Part shown: in pieces, positions 10,486 to 52,726 of the stretch
How positions within the stretch are numbered: the stretch's first letter is position 1
Layout of the letters: each line of letters starts with the position of its first letter
From: Candidatus Dojkabacteria bacterium
GTDB lineage: Bacteria > Patescibacteriota > Dojkabacteria > B142 > JAFGMG01
Assembly: GCA_016927655.1 (NCBI GenBank)
Contig: JAFGMG010000008.1
Coordinates: 5,929 to 69,928, forward strand
Length of the DNA stretch: 64,000 nt
Reading direction: 5' to 3'
Program-made: the position numbers and the translations under genes
Notes under the pieces: model-generated
What the model saw: the letters and a program-made list of their open reading frames with translations, nothing else
The model's database searches: none
Told to the model about the DNA's origin: nothing

Positions 10486-11988
10486 TCACTTAATCACGAA
10501 CACTTTGTTTTGATCAATTACTTTTTTGCCAAGCTCAAGCCTGATATCCGAGGCAGCATAAAGAGTTGCCAATAAATCTCCTGATTTGACCTGCTGCCCG
10601 GGCTGCATATGCACATAAAGCCCCGATTCCTTTATACGTGGGTTCCCAAGAGCCTTTGCTACTTCGAATATTCTTTTATTGTTGATCGATTCAAGGACTC
10701 CAGAACGAGGAGCCTTATATTCATAGACTATTCCGCCAACTTCCAGCGAATCAGAAGTAACCTCTACATCACCGCCCTGTGCTTCTACAATCTCACGGAA
10801 TTTTTTTTCTGCTTTTCCGCTATAGAGCGTTTCCTGGGCAAGATCAAACCCCCCGCCCTTTTGGGCCTTTCCAACCATTTCAAGCAAAATCCCCGCCATC
10901 TCTAATGCAGAGTTTTCAAGTTGCTGCGATTTTTGGGGATGCTGCTCATATACCCTTAAAAATTCCTTACATTCCAGAGCAGGTCCGACAGCATTCCCAT
11001 CTATTCCCATGACCTGCCTCTTATACACATTAACCTTAACCCCGAATTCCATCCCAAGCAGATCAAACATATTTTTAACTTTATCGAATTCTCCCTCATG
11101 TATCTTTGAGCTTGGACCAATCGGAACATCAAAAATAACGTGGTTTACACCTTGTGCAATTTTTTTTGCCATAATACTTGAAACAAATTTATCTATTGAT
11201 TCGATTCCGATATGTTTTTGATAACGAATGATCTCATCATCAGCCGGAGCAAGATCAAGCCCTCCGCCCCATACCATGAAAGCTCCATTTTTATCGACCA
11301 TTTCCTCGAGCTGACGTCTGTTAAAAACCATCGGCATAATAACTTCAAGCATATCCGTAGTTGCACTGGCACTAGTAACAGCTCTAGTTGAAGTATTCGG
11401 AACAATAACACCATTTGCGGCAACTATCGGGACTACAATCGGAGTTACTCCTTTTCCTGCAATTCCCCCAATCGAATGTTTATCTGCGACCGTACCCTGG
11501 AATTTCAAAATTTCTCCGGTCATGGCAAGGGCCTTTGTCATAAGGAGTATCTCTCCTTTGTCAAATCCAGGGCTGTACCCAGCCGCGATAAACACCGCAA
11601 TTAGAACTTCGTTCAACTTACCATTTGCAATATCGCGCATTATATAAAAAAAATCTTTGTAATCAAGCTTCTCACCAAGCAGTTTTTTCCTAATGGAAAC
11701 CGCTGATTCAATCTGATCTAAAAGACTAATTTCAATGACTGTTTTATCTTTTATGGCATTTTTCTGCCATATGTCTTCATAAATGCCAATCTCTCCCTCA
11801 TCTACAAGTGTCTGGGTAGTGTCTATCGTCGCTACAAGGGGCTCTGCAAGCCCGCTCCACTTTATTGAGACTCTATCCCCCACATTTACACCAACACCAT
11901 ATTCATTAGCATCAGCCTCATTGATTATGCAAATTAATTCATCTCCGGAATTGATATCAAGTTTTTTTGCAGCTAAAAAGAATTTCAT
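10486..11988 (-). CDS. AMP phosphorylase (archaeal-type DeoA / thymidine-phosphorylase family with ~90-aa N-terminal extension)
   Basis: Pyrimidine-nucleoside phosphorylase family motifs (DKHSIGGIAGKG, TSTRA) plus the N-terminal extra domain typical of AMP phosphorylase. 500 aa against about 440 aa for TP. Confidence 0.7.
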   Translation of the reverse strand: MKFFLAAKKLDINSGDELICIINEADANEYGVGVNVGDRVSIKWSGLAEPLVATIDTTQTLVDEGEIGIYEDIWQKNAIKDKTVIEISLLDQIESAVSIRKKLLGEKLDYKDFFYIMRDIANGKLNEVLIAVFIAAGYSPGFDKGEILLMTKALAMTGEILKFQGTVADKHSIGGIAGKGVTPIVVPIVAANGVIVPNTSTRAVTSASATTDMLEVIMPMVFNRRQLEEMVDKNGAFMVWGGGLDLAPADDEIIRYQKHIGIESIDKFVSSIMAKKIAQGVNHVIFDVPIGPSSKIHEGEFDKVKNMFDLLGMEFGVKVNVYKRQVMGIDGNAVGPALECKEFLRVYEQHPQKSQQLENSALEMAGILLEMVGKAQKGGGFDLAQETLYSGKAEKKFREIVEAQGGDVEVTSDSLEVGGIVYEYKAPRSGVLESINNKRIFEVAKALGNPRIKESGLYVHMQPGQQVKSGDLLATLYAASDIRLELGKKVIDQNKVFVIK

Positions 11989-29878: not shown

Positions 29879-30931
29879 TTAAATAAACTCTTCTCCTTTT
29901 ACTTGAATCCTCTCAAGAAGATCTATTTCCGAAAGAAGTGTACTTGTTCCTCTTGCAACGGCACTCATTGGATCCTCGTCAATTATTATAGGTGTTCTCA
30001 ATTTTTCCTCAAGATATTTATCAATTCCATCTAGCAGTGCCCCACCCCCGACTAATGTGATTCCGCGCTCGAGCAAGTCAGATAATATTTCTGGAGGAGT
30101 TTGCTCGAGCGCCTCTCTGGCAGCTTCCGCAATTTTATCTAGAACTTTTACAATCGCTTCCCGGATCTCCACACTTGAAACAGTCATCACTTTTGGCAAG
30201 CCGGAAACCAGGTCGCGCCCCTTAAGCTGCGCCTCTTTTTCTTTTCGCATCGAATAGGCAGATCCAATCGCAATTTTTATATCTTCTGCCTGCTTATCTC
30301 CAATTGCGACATTGTACTTGTGACGGGCATAATTTACGATTTCCTGATCAATTTCATCGCCCGCAATTCTTACAGTATTATCAACAACGATCCCCCCAAG
30401 CGAGATTATTGCAATATCAGTAGTACCTCCCCCAATATCAATAATCATTGAACCAGCAGCATCTTCAATTGGAATTTTGGCTCCAATGGCTGCTGCCATC
30501 GGCTCTTCAATAATATAAGCTCTTCTTGCTCCAGCAGTAACTGCTGCATCTATCACGGCTTTTCCTTCGACCTCAGTAATATTTGACGGCACTCCAATCA
30601 CTACTCGAGGCTTAGCAAAAGTAAATAATTTTGGAAAATCTTTGTGAACTTTTCTGATGAAGTAGCGGATCATAGCCTCTGTGCTGTCAAAATCTGATAT
30701 CACTCCATCTCTTAGCGGTCTCACAGCAACAATATTAGCAGGTGTTCGGCCGATCATTCTCTTCGCTTCTGCCCCGACCGCCAGAATTTGTTTAGTATTT
30801 TTGTTCACCGCAACAACAGAGGGCTCCGAAATCACGATTCCGTGGCCTTTAACTGCAACCATTGTATTGGCTGTACCAAGGTCTATCCCGACATCATGAG
30901 TAAACAAATTCCAAATACTTGGATTTGACAT
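29879..30931 (-). CDS. mreB: rod shape-determining actin homolog MreB
   Basis: VGIDLGTANT...EPSVVA...EPMAAAIGA...DIGGGTTD actin-fold motifs. Confidence 0.9.
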   Translation of the reverse strand: MSNPSIWNLFTHDVGIDLGTANTMVAVKGHGIVISEPSVVAVNKNTKQILAVGAEAKRMIGRTPANIVAVRPLRDGVISDFDSTEAMIRYFIRKVHKDFPKLFTFAKPRVVIGVPSNITEVEGKAVIDAAVTAGARRAYIIEEPMAAAIGAKIPIEDAAGSMIIDIGGGTTDIAIISLGGIVVDNTVRIAGDEIDQEIVNYARHKYNVAIGDKQAEDIKIAIGSAYSMRKEKEAQLKGRDLVSGLPKVMTVSSVEIREAIVKVLDKIAEAAREALEQTPPEILSDLLERGITLVGGGALLDGIDKYLEEKLRTPIIIDEDPMSAVARGTSTLLSEIDLLERIQVKGEEFI

Positions 30932-37166: not shown

Positions 37167-37862
37167 ATGAACGAACTTCTACCAGCCGCTTTGATTGATG
37201 AAGGGATCATTACCAGAGTCACACTCCTTATGATCATCATGCTTCCTATAGTTGGTACTGTGATCGGATTTACCAAGCATGTAATTGGTCTAAAGTCACT
37301 TGGGTTGTACGCACCAATTGTTATGACCTATGCGTATTTCCAAATTGGTTTATCAAGCGGCCATTCAAGTTGGATCGACCAGGTGTTCTACAGCTTTAAA
37401 GTCGGAATAGCATTAACCATAGTTGTTTTCCTCACCACCCTGCTTGCTCACAAGGTCACGAAACTAATGCGTCTTCATTATTCACCAAAAATTGCTTTAG
37501 TAATAAGCACAGTCGCAATCAGTATGTATCTGGTAATTATTGTTGCAAGATATTTAGATCTTGAGACATTTCTTGAAAGCAGCTTCATTCCAATCATTCT
37601 GCTTTCTACTGTTTCAGAGCAATTTGTAGTTACAATGGCCCAGAAAAATATAAAAACAGCTTTCAGCTTAACGCTGACTACAACAATCATCTCATTTTGC
37701 ACGTTTGCCCTGATCATCTACGGCCCTTTTCAGAATCTAATGATTGATTATCCTTATCTTTTGATTCTAACTTTCCCGCTCAATATTATGATTGGTAAAT
37801 TTACCGGGCTGAGACTACTTGAATATTTTAGATTCCAGAATGTTATTCCGCAAAACGAATAA
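37167..37862 (+). CDS. 7-transmembrane membrane protein (resembles the 7TM module that accompanies ATP-grasp peptide-ligase systems)
   Basis: Seven hydrophobic helices counted by eye; no soluble domain. Separated by 2 nt from the downstream ATP-grasp fusion gene. Confidence 0.55.
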   Translation: MNELLPAALIDEGIITRVTLLMIIMLPIVGTVIGFTKHVIGLKSLGLYAPIVMTYAYFQIGLSSGHSSWIDQVFYSFKVGIALTIVVFLTTLLAHKVTKLMRLHYSPKIALVISTVAISMYLVIIVARYLDLETFLESSFIPIILLSTVSEQFVVTMAQKNIKTAFSLTLTTTIISFCTFALIIYGPFQNLMIDYPYLLILTFPLNIMIGKFTGLRLLEYFRFQNVIPQNE

Positions 37863-37864
37863 AA

Positions 37865-40204
37865 ATGAGCTTTCTAAACACATTTAAAAATCGGGAAAAA
37901 ATTCTTGGGCGAAACGAGAGAAATCTCAAATATATCCGGCCCTACAATCTCACGCGCGCAAAAAAAATTGCCGATAACAAACTGCTGACAAAAGAAATTC
38001 TCGAGAAAAATGGTATACCAACGCCAAAATTAATTGGGAAAGTCGAATCTATCCAAGATCTAAAAAATTTCGATTGGGAATCCCTGCCAAACAGCTTCGT
38101 TATTAAACCAGTACAAGGGCTTGAGGGAGCCGGGATCGAAATTTTCTACAACAGGGATAAACAAGGCAGGTGGATCATGGGAGATGGCAGGAAAGTCTCC
38201 GTTGGAGACTTAAAAGCCATGGCAATTGATATTATGGACGGGAAATATTCACTCCACAACCAAAAAGACAGTGTATTTTTTGAAGAACGGGTAAAAATGC
38301 ACAAAGTTTTCAAATATTATGCCTATAAGGGAGCTCCTGATATTAGAATTCTTGTCTTCAATAATATTCCAATAATGTCTTATCTCCGGCTTCCGACAAA
38401 AGAATCCAAAGGTAAGGGGAATTTAGCTCTTGGCGCTGTTGGAGCTGCAATCGATCTTGCCAGTGGAATAACGACAACTGCTGTACTTGGGAAAGATACC
38501 ATTGTTGAGAAAATTCCCGGAACAAACTTAAATGTTGGAGGTTTAAAAATTCCATATTGGGATGAAATACTCAAAATAGCTATAAAAGCGCATCAAGTCA
38601 CCGGACTCGGCTTTGCTGCAATCGACTTTCTAATTGACCGGGATCTCGGCCCGCAGATCATTGAACTTAACGCCAGACCAGGTCTTTCAATACAAATTGC
38701 AAATAGAGATGGTCTTAGATGGAGACTCAGAAAAGCTGCAGGGCTCAAAGTTACAAGTCCACTGAAAGGAATTAGAATTGCTAAAGATCTTTTTGGAGGG
38801 CAGCTCGAGGAACAAATCGAAAAAATTTCAGGTAAATCGATTATAAGCCATATCATGCCTGTCGAGATAATCGATCCAAATCAAAAAAAGATTCCTGCTC
38901 TTGCCTTGATTGATACAAGCAGACGTACTACAACTATAAATTATAAACTCGCGCAAAAAGCGGGTATTCCAATTTCTGAAGAAAGCTTCAAAGAAACAAG
39001 CATGTCAGATATTTCTTTTAGTCTCGCCGGTAAAATTATCAATGCCGACTGCCGTGTAGTCAAAGATAAAATCCGGGGATACAATATGCTGATTGGGCGA
39101 AGAGATCTAGGCGACTTTCTAATTGACATCAGAAGAGTCGCTACCGGGAAAGAAGATCTGCAAAAAGAAGAACTTGTTTCAGTACAAGGGCTTCAAAAGC
39201 CGGAAAATATTGATAATGCACTTGCTGAAATTGCAGAACAAATCTACATAGTTAGAAATATCAGACCGACAAACGCATCTTCAGAGAAGAAAGAATTTAA
39301 CAAAAAGAAAACTTACAGTCCGCAACTTGAGTACGAGCCGGTAAATATTGATACTGATAACCTGATATACAAACTTAGCAACCTGAATCCGGATAGAAAT
39401 ACCCAGATTGGCAAACTACTATCTGAAAAGATCGACTCTTTAAGAAAAGCAATCTATCTAATCGAGGCGATTGGGGAAGATGATAAATTTCCGCAAAGAG
39501 CCGAGAACCTTTATGGCGTGCCGGATGTTAAGATTTTTACTAAGGCTGTAGAACTTATTCGAGAAACTGACGCTATCAAACCGGATGTAAGAAAAGAGAA
39601 AGTCCTGGATAAGTCAGAAGTTGAAAAAAGAATAGCAGATCATATCAAAAAAATCGGGATTGAAGCAAAAATCGAATACATCAGAAACGGCGCCGGGAAA
39701 GCCTCGATCGGGAAAAAACAAGGGATTATTTATTTAAATCCGGATTATAAATTTACCGAAACTAAATTATTAGGGACCTTGGCACACGAAATCGACATCC
39801 ATTTGGCGAGGTCCTTTTATGGCAGACAGCGACCTTATAAAATCTATAGTTATGGGACAGCTGGATACCTAGAAGTTGAGGAAGGGCTGGCCGTAAGAAA
39901 TAAAGCCGAGGTTTTAAAAAGTCAGCAGCCAATTAGAAATGCGGCTATTATGTACGTCGCAGCGTATTTAAATCACAAAAACTCCTTTAGAGAAACATAT
40001 AACTATCTCCTCAAGCTCGGCATATCAAAAACAAATGCTTACAATTTTACAATGAGAACAAAAAAAGGCATGATAGATACCTCAAAACCAGGAGCGTTTT
40101 TGAAAGATATGCTCTACTTTTCAGGTTATCTCAAAGTAAAGGATTTAAGCAAAGAGGAGATAGGAAAACTGATAAAAAGCGGAAAGACTTCTACAGTTAT
40201 TTAA
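37865..40204 (+). CDS. three-domain fusion: RimK-like ATP-grasp amidoligase + retropepsin-like (DUF785-type) domain + DUF1704/QEGLA MATCAP-like metallopeptidase
   Basis: ATP-grasp motifs FVIKPVQGLEGAGIEI, DIRILVFN and IELNARPG in the first ~310 aa. Mid-domain PALALIDTSRRT reads as a retropepsin-like D-T/S-G motif with G replaced by S. C-terminal LAHEIDIH (HExxxH) followed about 25 aa later by EEGLA. Confidence 0.65.
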   Translation: MSFLNTFKNREKILGRNERNLKYIRPYNLTRAKKIADNKLLTKEILEKNGIPTPKLIGKVESIQDLKNFDWESLPNSFVIKPVQGLEGAGIEIFYNRDKQGRWIMGDGRKVSVGDLKAMAIDIMDGKYSLHNQKDSVFFEERVKMHKVFKYYAYKGAPDIRILVFNNIPIMSYLRLPTKESKGKGNLALGAVGAAIDLASGITTTAVLGKDTIVEKIPGTNLNVGGLKIPYWDEILKIAIKAHQVTGLGFAAIDFLIDRDLGPQIIELNARPGLSIQIANRDGLRWRLRKAAGLKVTSPLKGIRIAKDLFGGQLEEQIEKISGKSIISHIMPVEIIDPNQKKIPALALIDTSRRTTTINYKLAQKAGIPISEESFKETSMSDISFSLAGKIINADCRVVKDKIRGYNMLIGRRDLGDFLIDIRRVATGKEDLQKEELVSVQGLQKPENIDNALAEIAEQIYIVRNIRPTNASSEKKEFNKKKTYSPQLEYEPVNIDTDNLIYKLSNLNPDRNTQIGKLLSEKIDSLRKAIYLIEAIGEDDKFPQRAENLYGVPDVKIFTKAVELIRETDAIKPDVRKEKVLDKSEVEKRIADHIKKIGIEAKIEYIRNGAGKASIGKKQGIIYLNPDYKFTETKLLGTLAHEIDIHLARSFYGRQRPYKIYSYGTAGYLEVEEGLAVRNKAEVLKSQQPIRNAAIMYVAAYLNHKNSFRETYNYLLKLGISKTNAYNFTMRTKKGMIDTSKPGAFLKDMLYFSGYLKVKDLSKEEIGKLIKSGKTSTVI

Positions 40205-41206
40205 TTATCTCCCCCTAAGACTGCTTTTGATCACATCCAAATGCTTCAACGCCTCGGCAACACCCGTAACGACTGCATCCAGAGGATCGTCCACAACGTG
40301 TGCAGGTACTCCGGTAGCTTTGGTGAAAAGCTCATCAATATCACTAAATAGTGCAGTTCCGCCGCTTAATACCATTCCCCTATCAATAATGTCAGAAGTA
40401 AGCTCCGGCGGAGTCTCTTCCAAGACAGTTTTTATTGCACCAATGATTTGATTTAGAACAGGCTTAACAGCGTCATTAAGCTCATTTGAATTTATCATTA
40501 AAGTAACAGGCATACCATTTGCAACACTTCTACCACGAACTTCCATTTCCTTGGGATTGTCATGAAAAACTGCAGAACCAATTTCAATTTTCATTTTCTC
40601 TGCCATCTGTTCCCCAATTACCAGACCTTTTATCTTCCTCATATAATTTACAATTGCTTCATTTAGAGCATCGCCCGCTATTCGTTTGGATTCATAATTG
40701 ACAATTCCATTCATAGAAATTACTGCAACCTCAGTAGTACCCCCGCCCATATTCACAATCATATTTCCAGTGCTGGTACTAATTGGAAGCTCCGCGCCAA
40801 TAGCGGCGGCAATCGGCTCAGGAATAAGATATATTTTCCCGGCTCCTGCTGCTGCTGCTGCCTCAATTACAGCTCTTTCCTCGACAGAAGTAAGACCTGC
40901 TGGAACACTTATCATAACTTCCGGCTTTACAAAGCGGCTCCTGCCGATTGCCTTATTAAGCAGCGCTTTTAACAGAGCTTCAGTCAGACGGTAACTTGCA
41001 ATCACTCCCTGCCTTAGGGGTCTTCTTGCAACAATGTTCCCAGGGACTTTACCAAGCATTTCCTTCGCTTCATTGCCGACAGCAAGAACCTTTCGATCGT
41101 CCAGGGACACTGCCACAACACTTGGTTCTCGTACAACAACCCCCTGCCCTTGCAGAAAGACTAAGGAATTCGCTGTTCCAAGATCAATTGCAACTTTTTT
41201 TGCCAT
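40205..41206 (-). CDS. second actin-like MreB paralog
   Basis: IDLGTANS...EPSVVA...EPIAAAIGA...NMGGGTTE. Confidence 0.8.
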   Translation of the reverse strand: MAKKVAIDLGTANSLVFLQGQGVVVREPSVVAVSLDDRKVLAVGNEAKEMLGKVPGNIVARRPLRQGVIASYRLTEALLKALLNKAIGRSRFVKPEVMISVPAGLTSVEERAVIEAAAAAGAGKIYLIPEPIAAAIGAELPISTSTGNMIVNMGGGTTEVAVISMNGIVNYESKRIAGDALNEAIVNYMRKIKGLVIGEQMAEKMKIEIGSAVFHDNPKEMEVRGRSVANGMPVTLMINSNELNDAVKPVLNQIIGAIKTVLEETPPELTSDIIDRGMVLSGGTALFSDIDELFTKATGVPAHVVDDPLDAVVTGVAEALKHLDVIKSSLRGR

Positions 41207-42730: not shown

Positions 42731-42754
42731 ACTATTCCCCGAGTAAAAATTATG

Positions 42755-42828
42755 TGCACTTGGCAGGAGTCGAACCTGCGACCTTCTCGTTAGGAGTGAG
42801 ATGCTCTATCCGTCTGAGCTACAAGTGC
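42755..42828 (-). tRNA. tRNA-Arg (anticodon CCU)
   Basis: Reverse complement folds with acceptor GCACTTG/CAAGTGC, D-arm GCTCAGACGGATAGAGC, anticodon loop CT-CCT-AA (one A:C mismatch at the stem base), T-arm GCAGGTTCGACTCCTGC. No encoded CCA. Confidence 0.75.
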
Positions 42829-42877: not shown

Positions 42878-43486
42878 TTAAACTTGAACCTTTCCATAAT
42901 ACCCCATCGGCTTATGAACGTTTACCGGATAATCCATGAGTTCTGTATCTGAGAACCAAAGTTCAATTTCTTCTTTGGCCTCATCAACTGAACCAGAGGC
43001 ATGTACAAGATTATAAAACGGTCTCATTTGTTCGTTGGCAAGATCGGCATTGTCCCAGCTATAATCTCCTCTAATAGTACCCGGAGCAGCCTTGACTGGA
43101 TTTGTCTCCCCTACCAGTTTACGCCCGATACTTACCGCTTCCGGTCCTTCAAAAACCATCGCTAGAACTGGTCCCATCGAGAGATACTCGACAAGCCAGC
43201 CTTTAACAAGTCCCCCAATTTCTTCCGGCACATCAGTCCCCAGTCTTTCCACTGGATCAATTCCTTTTTCTTTGTATTCAGCAAGCGTTCTCCCCCCAAC
43301 CTTTTCCTTCCATTCCTTACTATCAGGGTAATGTTTTTCACTCATATCATCAGTAGCAGCGATAAATTCCAGGGCTACCATTTTCAAACCCACTCTTTCA
43401 AATCTGGAAATTATTTCCCCCATCAAGCCCCTTGCAACACCATCGTGTTTAATTATTATCAGTGTTTTTTCTTTAGTTTTATCCAT
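42878..43486 (-). CDS. ndk: nucleoside diphosphate kinase-like protein (extended, ~35-aa insertion)
   Basis: IIKHDGVARGL...SMGPVLAMVFEG...GTIRGDY...NLVHASGS (catalytic His retained). Confidence 0.7.
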   Translation of the reverse strand: MDKTKEKTLIIIKHDGVARGLMGEIISRFERVGLKMVALEFIAATDDMSEKHYPDSKEWKEKVGGRTLAEYKEKGIDPVERLGTDVPEEIGGLVKGWLVEYLSMGPVLAMVFEGPEAVSIGRKLVGETNPVKAAPGTIRGDYSWDNADLANEQMRPFYNLVHASGSVDEAKEEIELWFSDTELMDYPVNVHKPMGYYGKVQV

Positions 43487-43503
43487 TTGAAATTGCTAAT
43501 AAA

Positions 43504-44127
43504 TTATTTTTCCAGATCAAGCATTCCAATATAATCGACCTTTTCATAATCACTCAAATCTTCGAATTTATCCCCAAACCAATGTGTGATTTCTCTTTTT
43601 GCTTCTTCCTTAGAATCAGAAATATGCACTAAAGTCTGAAATACGATTCTTCCGGATTTGACTGCTAACTGAGGAGTATCATACCCCCAATTGCCTCTAA
43701 TAGTGCCGACATCTGCAGTTGTTGGATCTGTTGCCCCCGCGAGCTTTCGAACGATTTTCACCGCCTCGTTCCCTTCCCAGACAGAGATAATCACTGGCCC
43801 GGATGATAAATATCTTACTAGTCCGTCATAAATTCTCTGCCCAATTTCTTTTTTGTCAGTCGTGCCCATTTCATCCATTATTCTTTTCTCATCGCCGCTG
43901 TAATTTGCCCAGGTTTTCTCTCCCATGCCAATCAGCCACTCATCAGTGCCTGGATAATTTCCCCTGGCCTGCTCTTCTGTCGCCTGAATCATCCTTGCTG
44001 CAACAAGTTTCAACCCAGCATCTTCAAGCTTTTTCCAAGCTCTGCCGATCAATCCTCGTTTCACCCCATCGGGCTTGATCATCATAAAAGTCTGCTCAAT
44101 ACTTGGGAAATTTTCCTTTGCTTTCAT
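43504..44127 (-). CDS. ndk: nucleoside diphosphate kinase-like protein, tandem paralog (extended)
   Basis: MMIKPDGVKRGL...SSGPVIISVWEG...GTIRGNW...TLVHISDS; same insertion position as its neighbour. Confidence 0.7.
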   Translation of the reverse strand: MKAKENFPSIEQTFMMIKPDGVKRGLIGRAWKKLEDAGLKLVAARMIQATEEQARGNYPGTDEWLIGMGEKTWANYSGDEKRIMDEMGTTDKKEIGQRIYDGLVRYLSSGPVIISVWEGNEAVKIVRKLAGATDPTTADVGTIRGNWGYDTPQLAVKSGRIVFQTLVHISDSKEEAKREITHWFGDKFEDLSDYEKVDYIGMLDLEK

Positions 44128-44143
44128 TCAATTTTTTTAATAT

Positions 44144-44770
44144 CTAAAGAAGTTTACGTTTTTTAAGCATTTCTATTATCGCATCAGTTACCTCTTCTGG
44201 TCCACCATTGCCATCAACCTTTTCCCAATCGCAATAGATCTCTTCCTTGACCATCTTTCTAAAAATTTTTTGCAATTTCTTTTGTTTTGCCACACTTTTT
44301 TCGAACATATCAGGCCCTTCATCATGACCCTCTTCTTTATTTTTCCGCTCGATCGCAACCTCCGGATCAACGTCTAAATAAATCGCCAGATCGGGTCTTG
44401 GAATATTAAATTCAACTCCATAGTCAATCAATTTCTGCAGTTCTACTTGACTCATAAGTAGTGATTGATATGCAATTGTTGTAGTGAAATAGCCATCAGC
44501 AATAAAAACCTTTTTCTTATCTTTGCCAACATAAGGAGAAATATTATCTGTATAGAGAGTTTTATCAAGTAAGTAAGAAAGCACCCAGGAAGCTGTATTC
44601 ATTTTGGTTTCACCTTGCAATGCTGGGTGGATAATTGTCTCGTAGAATGCATTGTGCACCGGGAATTCAACACCCTTCACTTTAACTCCCATTTTCGCCA
44701 ATCTGTCTGAAATTTCAATCCGCTGGAAACCTTTACCGCCGCCATCAATTGACTCAAGGACTAGAAACAT
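44144..44770 (-). CDS. thymidylate kinase-like P-loop kinase with non-canonical Walker A (IDGGGKGF)
   Basis: Tmk-like layout (LESIDGGGKGFQ...ADGYFTTTIAYQ, against canonical EGxDGxGKTT...DRY). The Ser/Thr after the Lys is replaced by Gly and DRY by DGY. Confidence 0.5.
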   Translation of the reverse strand: MFLVLESIDGGGKGFQRIEISDRLAKMGVKVKGVEFPVHNAFYETIIHPALQGETKMNTASWVLSYLLDKTLYTDNISPYVGKDKKKVFIADGYFTTTIAYQSLLMSQVELQKLIDYGVEFNIPRPDLAIYLDVDPEVAIERKNKEEGHDEGPDMFEKSVAKQKKLQKIFRKMVKEEIYCDWEKVDGNGGPEEVTDAIIEMLKKRKLL

Positions 44771-44851
44771 ATAAAAGTTCTAACAGCTAAGCTGAGTGAT
44801 TGTAACTTCAAATGGAATTTTGTGCAACACGATAATCCTCTATTCTGAAAT

Positions 44852-45088
44852 TTATTTCGATTTCTTCCAGAACAATGCCTGAATAGCAAGCGCTGTGATG
44901 ATTGTGTATATTGTCAGACCATACACGCAAACCGGAATACCAAGTAAATATCCTTCATCAGTAACAGCAGAACAGCCAAAATCGCAAGATTCTGTAAAAA
45001 TCTCATCGTAACTTAAAAATCCGGAGAACATCATTCCTGCAATGCCAATCACAAGCACAATCTGCATAGTTCTTTTTAAATCTAACAT
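44852..45088 (-). CDS. small 2-TM membrane protein with CxxxC loop (possibly a VKOR-like fragment)
   Basis: 78 aa; SCDFGCSAVTD...GIPVCVYG resembles the N-terminal Cys-loop of the VKOR family but is too short to be a full VKOR. Confidence 0.3.
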   Translation of the reverse strand: MLDLKRTMQIVLVIGIAGMMFSGFLSYDEIFTESCDFGCSAVTDEGYLLGIPVCVYGLTIYTIITALAIQALFWKKSK

Positions 45089-45142: not shown

Positions 45143-46003
45143 TCAATATTCTACTGCTATTCTGCCCTTGACATCAGTTCTATGAACTTCGATGCCAAAT
45201 TGCTTGAGATTATCCAGAGTCTCTTGGTGCGGATGCCCAAATTTATTATCTTTTCCAACCGAAACATACGCCTTTTCAGGATGGGTTAATTCGAGAAATT
45301 CTGTTGAAGTACTCGTTTTGCTGCCATGATGACCAACCTTGATTGCGTCCAGGTCATAAGTACTACCGGCAAAAATCTGCTCCTCATATTTACTCGGCAG
45401 ATCACCTCCGAAATACATTGCAAAGTCTTTGTAAACCAATACAAATGCAGCCGAAGCGTCATTGACATCCCACATGCAGCGTTTATCTTCTTCCCTAATT
45501 TCAACATCGCACTCTTCATAAATATCAAACGTCGGCCAAAGCATATCAAAATATGTGCAGCAACCCAGAGAAAAATCCTTTTGAGAATCCAGCTTCCAGT
45601 TCCCAATTTCGCCTTCCTTCACATCCTGCTGGAATTGGCGGAATGCCTCATTGCCATCTTCAAATGGGAGGAATGAGACAGCGTCTACATCGTAATAATC
45701 AAATACGAAGGGCATTCCGCCCACATGATCCTGATCAGGATGAGTTAAAATAACCAGATCCAGTGTCCGGTCCCAGAAAGGGATCACATCTTGAAGTTCC
45801 TGAATGACACTATCATCCGGCCCTGCATCAACTAAAATATATTTATTGTCCGCGGTCTTGATCAAAATCGCATCTCCCTGGCCAATATCTAGAATAAATA
45901 TTTCTAGGTTTCCCGAAGGCGAGCTGAAGATCAGATAACTAATCACAGCAATCAATGCCGTCAAAATGCCGCAAATTTTAATTAGCAATTTCTCGTTTCT
46001 CAT
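45143..46003 (-). CDS. comEC: ComEC C-terminal MBL-fold (DNA-uptake nuclease-like) domain as a separate ORF with its own TM anchor
   Basis: ILDIGQGDAILIK...VILTHPDQDHVGG metallo-beta-lactamase motifs of the ComEC C-terminal domain. Overlaps the upstream ORF by 26 nt in another frame. Confidence 0.7.
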   Translation of the reverse strand: MRNEKLLIKICGILTALIAVISYLIFSSPSGNLEIFILDIGQGDAILIKTADNKYILVDAGPDDSVIQELQDVIPFWDRTLDLVILTHPDQDHVGGMPFVFDYYDVDAVSFLPFEDGNEAFRQFQQDVKEGEIGNWKLDSQKDFSLGCCTYFDMLWPTFDIYEECDVEIREEDKRCMWDVNDASAAFVLVYKDFAMYFGGDLPSKYEEQIFAGSTYDLDAIKVGHHGSKTSTSTEFLELTHPEKAYVSVGKDNKFGHPHQETLDNLKQFGIEVHRTDVKGRIAVEY

Positions 46004-47456
46004 TTATTTTCCTGTAGCTGATTTCTATCATACACAGCAATATAGTTAAATAAATTATCAAAACAAGCCAACCAGTCAGACCGACAATTTTTACACTTGC
46101 GAACGGCAGTCCTCCGAAAAAATTAATCACTCTAATGATATAGTCCATTATCAAAATAAGCGGGAAAGCAGCAATTTTGGCCGTAGGGAGCGAAATCAGC
46201 GAAACTGTTACTACGATTGCAGAATAGAAGGTCAAAATTGTGACAACAGGCAAAACCAGCAAATTCACAAAAAGTGCCACAATTGAAAAAGTTTCAAAAT
46301 TAAGCATACTTACCGGAGTTGTCAACAAAATCGCTGATAATGTTGCGGGAAGCTCGCCAAGAAATTTTTTATATTTCTCGACCACCGAACTTCGTTCTAT
46401 ACTCTTTGAGAGGCCGACTATCCCAACTGTCGCAGCGAACGACAACTGGAAACTGACCGTGAAAACTGAAAGCGGATTCATAATTGACAGAACCAGAACG
46501 GCAATAGCCAAAAGAGAAAGAATTGAGGTCTTCCGCCCGATTGTTTTCGAAAAAAGTACAGTGTATCCCATAATTCCGGCACGCATCGCTGGGAGATTAT
46601 CAAACCCTACTAAAACTAAAAAGCAAAACAGTAGGAATGCTGTGAGCCATATCACATACTTACGGTGAATAACTCCAGCAAGCTTCAACAGCAACAAGAC
46701 TATCACCGAGACATTAAATCCCGAAACAGCGATGATATGAGTCGTCCCGGTATTCGAAAGATTCTTTGAAAAATCCTCAGGCATACTTGCTCTCTCGCCC
46801 CATACAAGTCCCGCAGCCAGCGATGCGTGCGGTTCCGGGAGAATTTTTCTGACACGCACACTCAAATCCTCCCGAAATAATGCAATTCTCTCAAAAAAGC
46901 TTTTTTTATGCCCCACCACCCAATACCCCTGCACCTTCACTTGGTAGAAAATCCCCTGAGTTTTCAGATACTCCTTGTAGTCAAAATCTTCCACCATCTC
47001 AGGCTCTTTCAGGAAAAATTCTCCCTCGATCACATCACCGTAATGAATCTTGGAAGTCTTTGGAAATGATGCAATCGCCAGCCCCTCAAAATTTTCTCCT
47101 TTTACCCGGCATTTTTTGTTGTAGCTGCCTTTCTCCGGCACCGAAACAACATGCATCTGCCCAACCGCGACCCCATAACTCTCTGCTACACGCTGCATTT
47201 TCGTTTCCCCGGCGAACGAATCAAACCGCCAAAAGCCAAGCAGGCTAAATGTCACCATTACAATTACCGGCAACAGCAGCCGTAGATTTCTTGCAGATAT
47301 CAATGCAAACCAGAGTAAATTGAACCCCAAAATGCCAATAACTATAGGGCCGACACCAAAGTAACCCAACACTATACCAAGCACAAATCCCAAACTCGCT
47401 TGCAAAAAAGGCAGATTTATCAGATAAATTGCGACAAAACCTAGCCGTTTTCGCAT
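45978..47456 (-). CDS. comEC: ComEC/Rec2 competence channel, membrane (Competence + DUF4131-like) portion
   Basis: Polytopic membrane protein directly downstream of comEA, with a soluble OB-like insert between TM blocks. Confidence 0.7.
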   Translation of the reverse strand: MRKRLGFVAIYLINLPFLQASLGFVLGIVLGYFGVGPIVIGILGFNLLWFALISARNLRLLLPVIVMVTFSLLGFWRFDSFAGETKMQRVAESYGVAVGQMHVVSVPEKGSYNKKCRVKGENFEGLAIASFPKTSKIHYGDVIEGEFFLKEPEMVEDFDYKEYLKTQGIFYQVKVQGYWVVGHKKSFFERIALFREDLSVRVRKILPEPHASLAAGLVWGERASMPEDFSKNLSNTGTTHIIAVSGFNVSVIVLLLLKLAGVIHRKYVIWLTAFLLFCFLVLVGFDNLPAMRAGIMGYTVLFSKTIGRKTSILSLLAIAVLVLSIMNPLSVFTVSFQLSFAATVGIVGLSKSIERSSVVEKYKKFLGELPATLSAILLTTPVSMLNFETFSIVALFVNLLVLPVVTILTFYSAIVVTVSLISLPTAKIAAFPLILIMDYIIRVINFFGGLPFASVKIVGLTGWLVLIIYLTILLCMIEISYRKINEKREIAN

Positions 47457-47459
47457 TTT

Positions 47460-48101
47460 CTAAATTGTAATTTCGTTTTTTATCTTCTCAAAAGTGCTCT
47501 CGCCGATACCACTCACATCCATTATTTCCTCAATCGCCCCAAACGGCCTTGCATCAATTATTTTCTGCGCCGTCGATGGCCCTATGCCTGATAACCCATC
47601 CAACTGCTCTAATGTTGCAGTATTGAGATTGACCAATCCCGTTTGAGATCCAGCAGCCGAAGTCCCTTCAGTATCCTGTCCTTCCTCGATCGATGGAATA
47701 TAGATTTTCTCTCTGTCCTCGACGAGTTTTGCCAGATTCATCTGCTTCTGGATATAGTACATATCAGCTTTTTCGGTGAATCCTCCTGCAAGCTCAATTA
47801 CCTCAAGCAGACTCACACCCTCATCTACTTCAATCACCCCAGGATTTGCAACCTGCCCCTCGATATCCACCACAAGTTTTTTCTCTTCTAACCCAGCTTG
47901 ATTTATCCCTTTTATCTGTTCAATTTCCTCCCCAGTCAACAATCTAATATCTTCTTCCCCTTTTTGATTTTTTTGAAAAAACAGCACCCCGCAAATCACC
48001 GCGCAAATGGATAAAATCAGGGCAATTGGAATTTTAAACCGTTCGAGCAGGTTTTGAATATCGATATTTTCCATGCAAAGGCTAGATAATAAACACCCCA
48101 A
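47460..48101 (-). CDS. comEA: competence protein ComEA (SLBB + tandem HhH DNA-binding)
   Basis: N-terminal TM, C-terminal LNTATLEQLDGLSGIGPSTAQKII...GIGESTFEKIK. Confidence 0.8.
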   Translation of the reverse strand: MGCLLSSLCMENIDIQNLLERFKIPIALILSICAVICGVLFFQKNQKGEEDIRLLTGEEIEQIKGINQAGLEEKKLVVDIEGQVANPGVIEVDEGVSLLEVIELAGGFTEKADMYYIQKQMNLAKLVEDREKIYIPSIEEGQDTEGTSAAGSQTGLVNLNTATLEQLDGLSGIGPSTAQKIIDARPFGAIEEIMDVSGIGESTFEKIKNEITI

Positions 48102-49882: not shown

Positions 49883-52726
49883 TTACTCCCCGACAACATA
49901 ATTAATCAGACGGTCTTTGACATATATTACACGTATTATAGCCTTTCCAGCAAGATATTTCCCGATTTTTTCAGATTTTTTTGCTTCTATTTCAACCTCA
50001 GACTGCTCACTTTCTGCCGGCATTTCTAGATTATCTCGCAATTTCCCGTTAACTTGAACGGCAATAGTGACCATTTTGTCTTTTGCCATGTTTTCATCAT
50101 ATACAGGCCACTTTTCTAAATGAATCGAAGTTTCATTTCCAAGTTCTTGCCACAGTTCTTCAGTAATAAATGGTGCAAATGGCGCAAGAACTAAAAGGAA
50201 CTTTTCCCATACTTTTTGGTCCAGCTGTTCAACATTTTGCGCATAATTCACAAACTCCATCATCTTGGCGATCGCGGTATTAAATGAAAGCGTCTCAAGG
50301 TCTTGACCAACTTTCTTGATCAATTTATTGATTTCTACCTGTTGGGTAGTTTCAGGTTTTTCCTCCCCGACCTTATCCTTTAGACCCCAGACTTTGCCCA
50401 AAAACCTTTTAATTCCCAGAACTCCTTTCGTCGACCATGGCTTATCATCAGAAAGTGGCCCCATGAACATCTCGTACATCCTCAATGTGTCTGCACCGTG
50501 GCTCTCTACAACGTCAGTTGGATTGATGACATTACCCCATCTTTTACTCATTTTGCGGCCATCTTCACCAAGTATCAATCCCTGATGTCTATGAACTTTA
50601 AAAGGCTCATCGAAATCAATATATCCTGCGTCATACAACACTTTTGTGAAAAATCTGGAGTACAGCAAATGCCCGTTTACATGTTCCGGTCCGCCAAGGT
50701 AAAAATCAACCGGCATCCACTTTTTCAAAGCTTCTGGGGATGCGAATTGCTTGTCATTTTTCGGATCCAAATAGCGGTAGTAGTACCAGCTCGAGCACAT
50801 GAAAGTGTCCAGGGTATCGACTTCTCTTCTCCAGCCCTTTCCGTATTTTTCTTCGACCCCTTCTTGAAAAGATTTGGAATATGTCAAAGGTGATTGTCCG
50901 GTAGGTTTGAAATCTACGTCATCAGGCAATACAACAGGGAGATCTTTTTCGTCCACAGGATGTAAATTCCCTTCTGGGTCATAAACCATCGGAATCGGCG
51001 CACCCCAGAATCTCTGCCTGCTCACTGACCAGTCGCGTAGCTTATAGGTCACTTTTGCCTCTCCAATACCTTTCTCCTCCAGCCATTTCACGACTGCCTC
51101 TTTTGCCTCTTCCGATTTCAATCCATCAAACTGGCCCGAATTGACGACTCTTCCATATCCTGAAAAAGTTTCCGCTCCATACAGATATCTCCTAAGACCA
51201 ATAATATTTTCTTCATGTGAGCATTTTTTCAAAAATTCTTCCGGACTCATCCAAACAGCATCCTGAATATCTTTTTCATCCTCATTTACATCAATAGGCT
51301 CATCTTCCAATAATTCCAATAGAACCGGCTGATTCAACCTATGCCTATATACGTTTTTATGATCTGCAAAAAAGTGCGATTCTATTTCACCTCCAAGAGT
51401 TTTGACTGCTTTGCATTTATATCCAGTTTCTTCCAAGACTTCTCTTTCAGCAGCGGCAAGTAAATCCTCCTCATCATCAATTCCACCTATAACTGGTGAA
51501 ACCCAGTTATTCTTCTTCCAATTGACGGCCAATACCTTCCCGTCCGATTCCCTTTGCACGACAGCAGATATTGTTTTTCGGAATTCTTCATCTTTCCTTT
51601 CTTTTCCGAATATTGGTATTACAACTTCTTTGATTTCCAGCTTGTATTTTTTTGCAAAATCCATATCTCTCTGGTCATGGGCGGGAACTGCCATTATTGC
51701 CCCAGTACCATAATCAGTCAGGACATAATCGGCAATCCAAATTGGAATATTTTTCTCTGTGGCTGGGTTGATTGCATATGCTCCGGTAAATACCCCTGAC
51801 TTACTTTTTGTCATATCAGTTCTCTCAATTTCTGTCTTTTTCTTCGCATCCTCGACATATTTTTCGACTTCTCCCTTTTGCTCTTCAGTTGTAATTTGCT
51901 TTACCAATTCATGTTCCGGCGCAAGGACCATATATGTAGCTCCAAAAATAGTATCAGGTCTGGTCGTAAACACCTTTAAGGTCTTATCTGAATCAACGAT
52001 TTCGAACCTTATCTGTGCCCCTTCACTTCTCCCAATCCAATCCCTCTGCCTTTTAACTGTCTCTTTTGGCCAGTCGACCTTGTCCAGATCTTTTGCCAAT
52101 CGATCTGCGTATTCTGTGATTTTCAAATACCACTGCTCCATCATTTTATGTTCAACTGGAGTATCGCACCTCTCGCACACCTCCTGCCCATCTTTGTCTA
52201 CCACCTGCTCGTTTGCAAGAACTGTCTTGCAGCTTGGACACCAGTTTACTTTCTGATTTTTTCTATATGCCAAGCCTTGATTGTACATAAGCAGGAAGAA
52301 CCACTGCGTCCATTTGTAGTAGTCGGGATTGTGGGATCCAACTTCACGGTCCCAATCATATGAAGCTCCAATCTTAACTAGTTGACTTTTGTAATTTTCA
52401 ATAGCCTTATCAGTATTTATCCTTGGGTGAATATTTGTCTTTACTGCATAGTTTTCTGCCGGTAAACCAAAGGCATCCCATCCCATAACCTGGAGAACTT
52501 TCTCACCTTTCATTCTTTTAAATCTTGCCAAGATATCACACCCAACATATATTTCCGTATGCCCAACGTGCAGACCAGATCCCGATGGATAAGGAAGCTG
52601 CGGCAGGATGTAATATTTGTTTTCATGCGTGGCATCTTCAGGAGTTTTGTAAATTCCTGTCTCTGCCCATTTTTTGATCCATTTTGGCTCGATTGCCTTT
52701 GGATCGTATTGTGCTTTGCTGTCCAT
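49883..52726 (-). CDS. leuS: leucyl-tRNA synthetase carrying an inserted Nudix-hydrolase-like domain
   Basis: HIGH motif (HVGH), editing-domain TTRPDT, AHDQRD, KMSKR. The insertion between AHDQRD...KYKLEIK and SGQFDGL carries the perfect Nudix box G x5 E x7 REVLEETGY. Confidence 0.9.
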   Translation of the reverse strand: MDSKAQYDPKAIEPKWIKKWAETGIYKTPEDATHENKYYILPQLPYPSGSGLHVGHTEIYVGCDILARFKRMKGEKVLQVMGWDAFGLPAENYAVKTNIHPRINTDKAIENYKSQLVKIGASYDWDREVGSHNPDYYKWTQWFFLLMYNQGLAYRKNQKVNWCPSCKTVLANEQVVDKDGQEVCERCDTPVEHKMMEQWYLKITEYADRLAKDLDKVDWPKETVKRQRDWIGRSEGAQIRFEIVDSDKTLKVFTTRPDTIFGATYMVLAPEHELVKQITTEEQKGEVEKYVEDAKKKTEIERTDMTKSKSGVFTGAYAINPATEKNIPIWIADYVLTDYGTGAIMAVPAHDQRDMDFAKKYKLEIKEVVIPIFGKERKDEEFRKTISAVVQRESDGKVLAVNWKKNNWVSPVIGGIDDEEDLLAAAEREVLEETGYKCKAVKTLGGEIESHFFADHKNVYRHRLNQPVLLELLEDEPIDVNEDEKDIQDAVWMSPEEFLKKCSHEENIIGLRRYLYGAETFSGYGRVVNSGQFDGLKSEEAKEAVVKWLEEKGIGEAKVTYKLRDWSVSRQRFWGAPIPMVYDPEGNLHPVDEKDLPVVLPDDVDFKPTGQSPLTYSKSFQEGVEEKYGKGWRREVDTLDTFMCSSWYYYRYLDPKNDKQFASPEALKKWMPVDFYLGGPEHVNGHLLYSRFFTKVLYDAGYIDFDEPFKVHRHQGLILGEDGRKMSKRWGNVINPTDVVESHGADTLRMYEMFMGPLSDDKPWSTKGVLGIKRFLGKVWGLKDKVGEEKPETTQQVEINKLIKKVGQDLETLSFNTAIAKMMEFVNYAQNVEQLDQKVWEKFLLVLAPFAPFITEELWQELGNETSIHLEKWPVYDENMAKDKMVTIAVQVNGKLRDNLEMPAESEQSEVEIEAKKSEKIGKYLAGKAIIRVIYVKDRLINYVVGE

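Follow-up and report, generated by a model that had tools for sequence, protein, structure and literature searches.

In the window analysed here, a stretch of 64,000 nucleotides from a contig (JAFGMG010000008.1, positions 5,929 to 69,928 of the forward strand) of Candidatus Dojkabacteria, members of the candidate phyla radiation (CPR) or Patescibacteria formerly known as WS6, three adjacent and co-oriented genes of the minus strand code for a thymidylate kinase-like (Tmk-like) protein and two long-type nucleoside diphosphate kinases (NDKs), NDK-2 and NDK-1. The Tmk-like protein belongs to a group of homologues, hereafter the DGY clade, in which Gly replaces the Arg of the DRX motif found as DRY in most relatives. 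Judging from the residues conserved around this replacement, the protein is probably a rewired rather than a dead enzyme, and we give an even chance to the more specific reading that it is the still-active dTMP kinase of its lineage, in which the phosphate clamp would have been relocated and whose products would feed the NDKs in the salvage of imported DNA. What appears to be new is a class-wide Tmk orthologue devoid of the DRX Arg and endowed with apparently compensatory substitutions, while the NDK pair is the known long form of the Pyrobaculum type, present here as an old tandem pair. No paper joining Dojkabacteria with these kinases was found in the literature.

The gene of the Tmk-like kinase (44144-44770, minus strand) codes for 208 aa, a protein 100% identical to JW978_02665, which bears the label 'hypothetical protein' at NCBI. 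It scores 56.8 bits with the Pfam profile PF02223 (Thymidylate_kin), the cut-off being 27 for this profile as for that of NDK. Its matches in the PDB, obtained with phmmer and with a family profile, are thymidylate kinases, with family-profile scores of 75 bits for the P. falciparum enzyme (TMPK), 59 for that of T. maritima, 51 for the human and 50 for the M. tuberculosis enzyme, and with A. aeolicus also among the best. An AlphaFold2 model computed from an alignment of 27 sequences (pLDDT, the predicted score of the local distance difference test, 92.6; predicted TM-score, pTM, 0.89) retrieved only thymidylate kinases among its best 50 Foldseek matches in the PDB (TM 0.72-0.81). The sequence-only reading had asked whether the 208-aa protein is a Tmk, a deoxynucleoside kinase (dNK) or another P-loop kinase; by hidden Markov model, family profile and predicted fold, it is a member of the Tmk family. 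A deoxynucleoside kinase identity was rejected, since the dNK profile of Pfam (PF01712) gave no match to the protein at E<=0.01, the fold matches are all Tmks and the Arg at the motif position is missing; the sole match on the deoxynucleoside kinase side was a partial and weak one to PDB 8j5g (E=0.0057).

The active-site elements of the Tmk-like protein are the P-loop S7-I-D-G-G-G-K13-G14-F15-Q-R17, the D92-G93-Y94 strand and the lid R142-K143...E146-E-G-H149-D-E151-G...D154...E157...K162-Q163. Among the 94 homologues, with identities down to 41%, G14 is present in 93/93 and D-G-Y in 93/94. In the 27-sequence alignment, 38 columns are invariant and cluster in the P-loop, the DGY strand, the helix that follows it (T97, Y101, Q102) and the lid (R142, K143, E146, G148, H149, E151, G152, D154, E157, K162, Q163). 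At three of the 27 Dojkabacteria loci that were compared (L018, L020 and L023), the lid reads EEGK-E instead of EEGH-x-EG, with His149 replaced by Lys and one residue deleted, so that not all members of the DGY clade have the lid His. These loci (L001-L027) were picked by a pattern requiring G-K-G and over-represent that P-loop; the unbiased numbers are those of the 150 best sequences, which were aligned out of the 11,450 matches obtained at E<=0.001 in an exhaustive profile search of 1.84 billion representatives.

Which of the deviations are real anomalies can be read from this set. The claim of the sequence-only reading that IDGGGKG, in place of GxxGxGK(S/T), betrays a degenerate P-loop is largely unsupported. 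The residue after the Walker-A Lys (K+1) is variable among the 150 nearest Tmk representatives, with 40 Glu, 25 Gly, 17 Thr and 17 Ser besides others. No departure from the Walker-A motif is commoner than Gly at K+1, which arose repeatedly in nucleoside monophosphate (NMP) kinases, where a water molecule stands in for Ser/Thr as Mg ligand (bioRxiv 10.1101/2022.06.23.497301). G10, G12 and K13 are invariant in the DGY clade, and IDGGGKG would if anything fit an NMP kinase. The DGY motif is another matter: of the 150 sequences, 136 have Arg at position 93 and only 9 have Gly, these 9 all coming from the DGY clade. The objection that canonical Tmks commonly carry the same substitutions thus holds for Gly at K+1 and fails for DGY, which stands as a real anomaly specific to the clade. 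Real as well are the losses of the Thr at K+2 (Thr15), found in 115/141 of the nearest relatives and replaced by R/K/F/H/A in the DGY clade, which has no hydroxyl residue at K+1 or K+2, and of the basic lid residue Arg/Lys155, present in 62% of the DRY relatives and in 0% of the DGY clade, where Met or Ile takes its place. The type-I P-loop Arg is likewise absent from the clade. The positions that align with the dTMP site of 3hjn, 2yof and the human and M. tuberculosis Tmks are kept (F/Y66, K/Q70, T/N98, Y101, Q102 and D9); in the human, E. coli and M. tuberculosis TMPK structures, the residues at these positions bind thymine and deoxyribose.

Among the same 150 representatives, 48 (P0103-P0142 and others) lack the Walker-A Lys yet keep D-R-Y, with P-loops such as GCGGETQ, GAGCETQ and GAGTGTQ. 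Two of these Lys-less proteins are composite, P0116 joining a Tmk domain to two adenylate kinase (ADK) domains and P0142 to one.

The loss of R93 is accompanied by other changes when the DGY clade is compared with the 136 DRY relatives. Position 17 is basic in 5% of the latter and in 98% of the DGY clade, position 162 in 7% and 100%, respectively, and H39, H48 and H149 rise to 100% in the clade, position 39 being Tyr in most relatives; K70 and several acidic residues were also gained. The gains of R17 and K162 fall together with the loss of R93. His149 is not specific to the DGY clade: it also occurs in the DRY-type sister proteins, and the closest full-length DRY relatives, P0100 and P0101, have an EEGH-x-EGLD lid without R17 and K162. 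Because these DRY-type proteins share the lid, this lid type is older than the R-to-G change. P0100 and P0101 also lack the Walker Lys, their P-loop being G-S-G-T-G-T-Q.

The same ancestry can be followed through gene order. Locus L081 has the arrangement ComEA-ComEC-MBL-ArgRS-Tmk(DRY)-long NDK, where MBL stands for a metallo-beta-lactamase-fold protein and where the Tmk (P0363), the closest DRY-type relative, is 86% identical to P0100. A neighbour-joining tree unites the DGY proteins in a monophyletic clade that has the DRY proteins as its sister. Judged by the shared neighbourhood of P0363 and by the tree, an ordinary DRY-type Tmk has its positional orthologue in the DGY gene, and the R-to-G change arose once. 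The other Tmk relatives adjoin neither ComEC nor NDK. One group of them adjoins a gene of the dCTP-deaminase/dUTPase family; at locus L082 (5430-8998), a more distant DRY-type protein (P0364) is encoded directly after such a gene, near a Cas12f1-like TnpB gene. No second gene of the Tmk family turned up when the window and the 27 Dojkabacteria loci, 466 kb in all, were searched by tblastn using 20 diverse Tmk queries.

In the model that we favour, the operon would carry out the two final steps by which deoxynucleotides are salvaged after ComEC-mediated DNA import. The Tmk-like kinase would phosphorylate dTMP, and perhaps other deoxynucleoside monophosphates (dNMPs), freed from the imported DNA, and the NDKs would turn the resulting (d)NDPs into (d)NTPs via phospho-His. 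Within the kinase, the lost Arg clamp would be replaced by R17 of the P-loop helix and by K162, with which the post-lid helix begins, together with H39 and the lid residues R142/K143. Several observations weigh against this model. The DRX Arg is described as indispensable to the catalysis of dTMP kinases and PPK2s, and the inactivity of rPPK3 has been put down to its replacement (PMC12995831). Besides this Arg, the DGY clade lacks lid Arg155, Ser/Thr at K+1/K+2 and the type-I P-loop Arg, and position 15 is not conserved, therefore forming no part of any fixed clamp. The Tmk-like protein does not reach the cut-offs of the NCBIfam dTMP-kinase equivalogs TIGR00041 and NF005923 (56.2 vs 83.25 and 65.7 vs 193, respectively), several members of the DGY clade are named 'hypothetical protein' at NCBI, and the absence of a second tmk gene holds for the 466 kb searched. 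Of the altered or lost phosphotransfer chemistry proposed by the sequence-only reading, altered chemistry is nevertheless plausible, whereas lost function seems unlikely because the 38 invariant columns cluster in active-site elements and because new invariant basic residues appeared there.

It is in these terms that an inactive, nucleotide-binding pseudo-kinase, acting as a regulatory or scaffold subunit (e.g., for the adjacent NDKs) as rPPK3 does for cPPK3, has to be considered, and we regard it as unlikely. The replaced DRX Arg, the very change blamed for rPPK3 inactivity (PMC12995831), is its strongest argument, to which can be added the further losses of Arg155 and of Thr at K+2, the missed equivalog cut-offs and the fact that the tmk-like gene always adjoins NDK genes. 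However, PPK3 operons always have both subunits and no catalytic Tmk paralogue neighbours the DGY gene, which corresponds by position to a DRY-type Tmk as its orthologue and lies outside any ppx/CHAD/SixA context; the P-loop Lys, the Walker-B Asp, R142/K143 and the base-binding positions are invariant, the new invariant basic residues in active-site elements are unlike relaxed catalytic constraint, and the solved cPPK3 homologue (PDB 2plr and 5h70) matches more weakly than true Tmks (43.5 bits for 2plr vs 75 bits for P. falciparum TMPK in the family profile). With a pseudo-kinase, moreover, the lineage would have no dTMP kinase unless it carries a further copy. Equally unlikely is a kinase that remains active but has changed its substrate or donor, be it a thymidine or deoxynucleoside kinase using His39 as base on the 5'-OH, a broad dNMP kinase or an enzyme with a donor other than ATP. 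A nucleoside kinase would leave the dTMP-to-dTDP step unfilled and is at odds with the lack of a dNK match in Pfam at E<=0.01; the ERS motif of deoxynucleoside kinases retains its Arg, kinases with an anionic phosphate acceptor typically have Gly at K+1, and both the logic of the operon, leading from DNA uptake through dNMPs to NDK, and positional orthology favour an NMP acceptor. What speaks for a change of substrate is that R45 and R97 of human TMPK, the binders of the dTMP 5'-phosphate, are both replaced in the alignment, by H39 and G93, while the base-binding positions are retained, and that the highly unorthodox P-loops of many of the nearest relatives indicate plasticity in this branch; His39 would also align with the residue that is the catalytic Glu in deoxynucleoside kinases. 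For polyphosphate as donor, the dTMP positions kept, the missing ppx, CHAD and SixA neighbours, the absence of a paralogue pair and the weaker match to 2plr/5h70 are all unfavourable.

We consider it very improbable that the DGY protein is no conventional ATP:dTMP phosphotransferase at all and, having lost the Arg clamp, would function solely in concert with the paired NDKs, acting, within a dedicated dNTP-synthesising complex coupled to ComEC import, as a non-catalytic dTMP/dTDP-binding partner of the NDKs or as an acceptor of the phosphoryl group of a phospho-His NDK. A sequencing or assembly error, or recent decay in a single genome, has nothing in its favour beyond the unusual motifs themselves and is practically negligible, given that 94 independent sequences from 27 genomes at species level and others have the same residues, the intact open reading frame (ORF), the pLDDT of 92.6 and the conserved synteny.

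Downstream of the tmk-like gene, NDK-2 (43504-44127, minus strand; 207 aa) and NDK-1 (42878-43486, minus strand; 202 aa) score 122.9 bits, in two stretches, and 125.5 bits with the Pfam NDK profile, respectively, and are 44% identical to each other over 184 residues (E=1e-44). NDK-1 has the motifs K-H-D, H-Y and NLVH-A-S and the complete set of catalytic residues. Its K12, Y52, R88, T94, R105, N115, H118, S120 and E129 are kept in 19/19 orthologues, according to the numbering of human NME1, whose key residues landed on the expected numbers. NDK-2 has K-P-D, N-Y and TLVH-I-S, and its catalytic set is complete except for the replacement of N115 by Thr. By profile and catalytic residues, both are predicted NDP kinases. 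They stay below the NCBIfam equivalog cut-offs because an insertion splits the profile match. Relative to short NDKs, which align to them only as two pieces, both indeed have two insertions, one of about 33 aa that follows the HY motif and one of about 10 aa that precedes the catalytic His. The traits that the sequence-only reading had seen as common to the pair can thus be kept for the catalytic His and for the insertion, then put at about 35 aa, but not for the H-Y motif, which is N-Y in NDK-2. Nor is the insertion a novelty of this locus: PDB 1XQI, the 195-aa NDK of Pyrobaculum aerophilum and known long form, matches NDK-1 over residues 6-184 (E=1.1e-55) and NDK-2 over residues 9-186 (E=3.9e-44), in a single stretch in both cases (phmmer).

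The proposal that the two genes result from an old tandem duplication is borne out by the comparison of loci. About 20 Dojkabacteria species have the genes in the order tmk-like, ndk-2, ndk-1, identities are 57-81% between orthologues as against about 40-47% between paralogues, and the NDK-1 and NDK-2 groups separate cleanly in a neighbour-joining tree. On this evidence from gene order, identities and tree, the duplication predates the radiation of these Dojkabacteria lineages. The K-H-D motif is invariant in NDK-1 (window and 18 orthologues from loci L001-L027), whereas human NME1, the Pyrobaculum NDK and all NDK-2 proteins compared have K-P-D. Among the 120 best homologues of NDK-2 listed (P0243-P0362), all at least 62% identical to it, the catalytic His is kept in 119 and position 115 is usually Thr. 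Arg88 is present in 80 of the 120, none of which has Arg119, the position directly after the catalytic His, while 32 of the 40 without Arg88 have Arg119. This distribution suggests that the phosphate-binding Arg of NDK-2 was relocated from 88 to 119 in some species, and such mutual exclusivity points to continued selection for catalysis in NDK-2. The two paralogues may assemble into a hetero-oligomer to do their work or may have divided tasks.

In a sub-clade (L006-L012), a single and very divergent long NDK is found beside the tmk-like gene, with GSITAD instead of GTIRGD, Arg105 thus being lost, and with an insertion 5 aa shorter. Because these loci nest inside two-NDK lineages in the tree of the Tmk-like proteins, their single-NDK state is, on that tree, derived. 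A natural fusion of NDK-2 with NDK-1 in L027 was rejected because of a stop at 11220 and of a start of its own at 11248.

All the strings quoted by the sequence-only reading (NLVHAS, TLVHIS, IDGGGKG and DGY) were found in the translations of the window, and its three co-oriented genes were recovered at the same positions on the minus strand. NDK-2 is identical to an NCBI entry named 'nucleoside-diphosphate kinase' from the same taxon. Spacers of 16 nt (tmk-like/ndk-2) and 17 nt (ndk-2/ndk-1) separate the genes, between which the site scan revealed no terminator-like site. No Shine-Dalgarno-like motif was seen 5' of the three genes, and translational coupling can therefore not be argued from sequence. 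The 81-nt spacer 5' of the tmk-like gene contains a weak promoter-like site (TGCACA-16-TACAAT; 44799-44826, minus strand) detected by consensus scan, and a tRNA-Arg (CCU) gene predicted by ARAGORN (42754-42828, minus strand) ends the co-directional string 49 nt 3' of ndk-1.

On the same strand, directly upstream of the tmk-like operon and tightly packed, lie comEA, comEC and the gene of the MBL protein. ComEA, a DNA-binding protein with SLBB and HHH_3 domains (47460-48101, minus strand), and the 492-aa ComEC channel protein with DUF4131 and Competence domains (45978-47456, minus strand) were recognized from precomputed Pfam calls and synteny. The 286-aa MBL protein (45143-46003, minus strand; Pfam Lactamase_B) is the equivalent of the C-terminal nuclease-like domain of ComEC, which is hence split over two ORFs that overlap by 26 nt, as it is at other Dojkabacteria loci. 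A 78-aa VKOR-like small membrane protein is encoded at 44852-45088 (minus strand; Pfam VKOR, 28.5 bits vs a cut-off of 27.5, the precomputed annotation also giving a weak VKOR call). The synteny comEA-comEC-MBL-tmkL-ndk2-ndk1 is conserved in most of the 27 Dojkabacteria loci, with the MBL ORF directly 5' of the tmk-like gene in most of them. Three nucleotide-kinase-like genes, regarded as unusual for a minimal genome by the sequence-only reading, are instead part of an operon that is conserved in the class and linked to genes of DNA uptake. For CPR bacteria, the import of DNA via ComEC/ComEA is believed to be a way of obtaining nucleotides (PMC8080830).

Elsewhere in the window, the segment 10486-12923 (minus strand) codes for a Glycos_transf_3/PYNP_C protein, with weak scores, resembling AMP or pyrimidine-nucleoside phosphorylases, next to an IF-2B-family protein (185 bits) resembling ribose-1,5-bisphosphate isomerase; we take such a pair to be the archaeal-type nucleotide-salvage pair reported from CPR genomes. 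A leucyl-tRNA synthetase of 947 aa (49883-52726, minus strand) carries, behind its editing domain, an inserted NUDIX domain (residues 383-501; 51 bits), an arrangement for which we know of no precedent. Finally, the gene of a 7TM_transglut membrane protein precedes that of a 779-aa ATP-grasp_ST/MATCAP protein (37167-40204, plus strand), and two MreB paralogues are encoded at 40205-41206 and 29879-30931.

Phosphorylation of dTMP is an essential step to dTTP. If the reading of the DGY protein as an active dTMP kinase is correct, a whole class carries out this step without the DRX Arg and without the Walker-A hydroxyl, relocated Arg, Lys and His residues serving in their stead, which would add a further architecture to the active sites of Tmks and would call for caution before such proteins are declared 'inactive' by motifs alone. 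Specialists of nucleotide kinases would likely be surprised if the DGY protein were the only dTMP kinase of the lineage. An inactive DGY protein would be equally informative, as Dojkabacteria would then need another route to dTDP. The linkage comEA-comEC-MBL-tmk-ndk-ndk itself provides direct genomic support for DNA import in CPR bacteria mainly as a source of nucleotides.

Among known systems, canonical Tmks (P. falciparum 2wwf/2yof, T. maritima 3hjn, human 1e2f, M. tuberculosis 1g3u and A. aeolicus 2pbr) have the same fold and are the best profile matches of the Tmk-like protein, with which they share the P-loop G-x-G-K, the Walker-B Asp, the FP loop, F/Y66, Y101-Q102, R142 and D154/E157. 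The DGY protein differs from them by Gly in place of the DRX Arg, by the lack of Ser/Thr at K+1/K+2 and of the type-I P-loop Arg, by Met or Ile in place of Arg155 and by the clade-specific R17, K162, H39 and H48; the EEGH-x-EG lid insertion, also unlike canonical Tmks, occurs in its DRY sisters too. These sisters (P0363/P0100 at L081, and P0101) have the same neighbourhood and the same EEGH-x-EGLD lid but keep DRY, lack the Walker Lys, R17 and K162, and adjoin a single NDK only. With the P-loop of adenylate kinases (G-x-x-G-x-G-K-G-T), the DGY clade has in common the Gly after the Lys. Adenylate kinases keep Thr at K+2, unlike the DGY clade with its R/K/F/H/A, and sequence kinship is limited to the P-loop kinase fold.

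Tmk-fold paralogues can be polyphosphate kinases, as described for PPK3 (JBC 2026; PMC12995831). The regulatory subunit of the archaeal enzyme, rPPK3 (Saci_2020), resembles the DGY protein in that its DRX Arg is replaced on a Tmk fold. Its gene lies in ppx/CHAD/SixA operons beside that of a catalytic Tmk-like paralogue with which it forms a pair, the residues that bind dTMP are gone, and a canonical dTMPK occurs alongside it (PMC12995831). Neither the paralogue pair, nor this operon context, nor the loss of dTMP residues was seen at the DGY locus, nor was a canonical dTMPK gene found in the 466 kb searched. Membership in PPK3 was rejected on the grounds of the single Tmk gene, of its ComEA/ComEC/MBL/VKOR-like/NDK neighbours, of the dTMP positions kept and of the weaker match to 2plr/5h70.

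Finally, the NDK of P. aerophilum (1XQI) is matched end to end by both NDKs of the window, with the same two insertions and the same catalytic residues. The window differs from it by two diverged tandem paralogues, by K-H-D instead of K-P-D in NDK-1, by N115T in NDK-2 and, in other species, by the apparent move of Arg88 to position 119 in NDK-2. The extra subdomains of the Pyrobaculum NDK have been read as a means of hyper-stabilisation (Pedelacq 2005, as cited in PMC7554756). While 1XQI comes from a hyperthermophile, the long form of the window comes from a mesophilic-looking CPR bacterium, and the presence of this 'hyperthermophile-type' NDK in a non-thermophilic host calls into question thermostability as the explanation of its extra subdomains.

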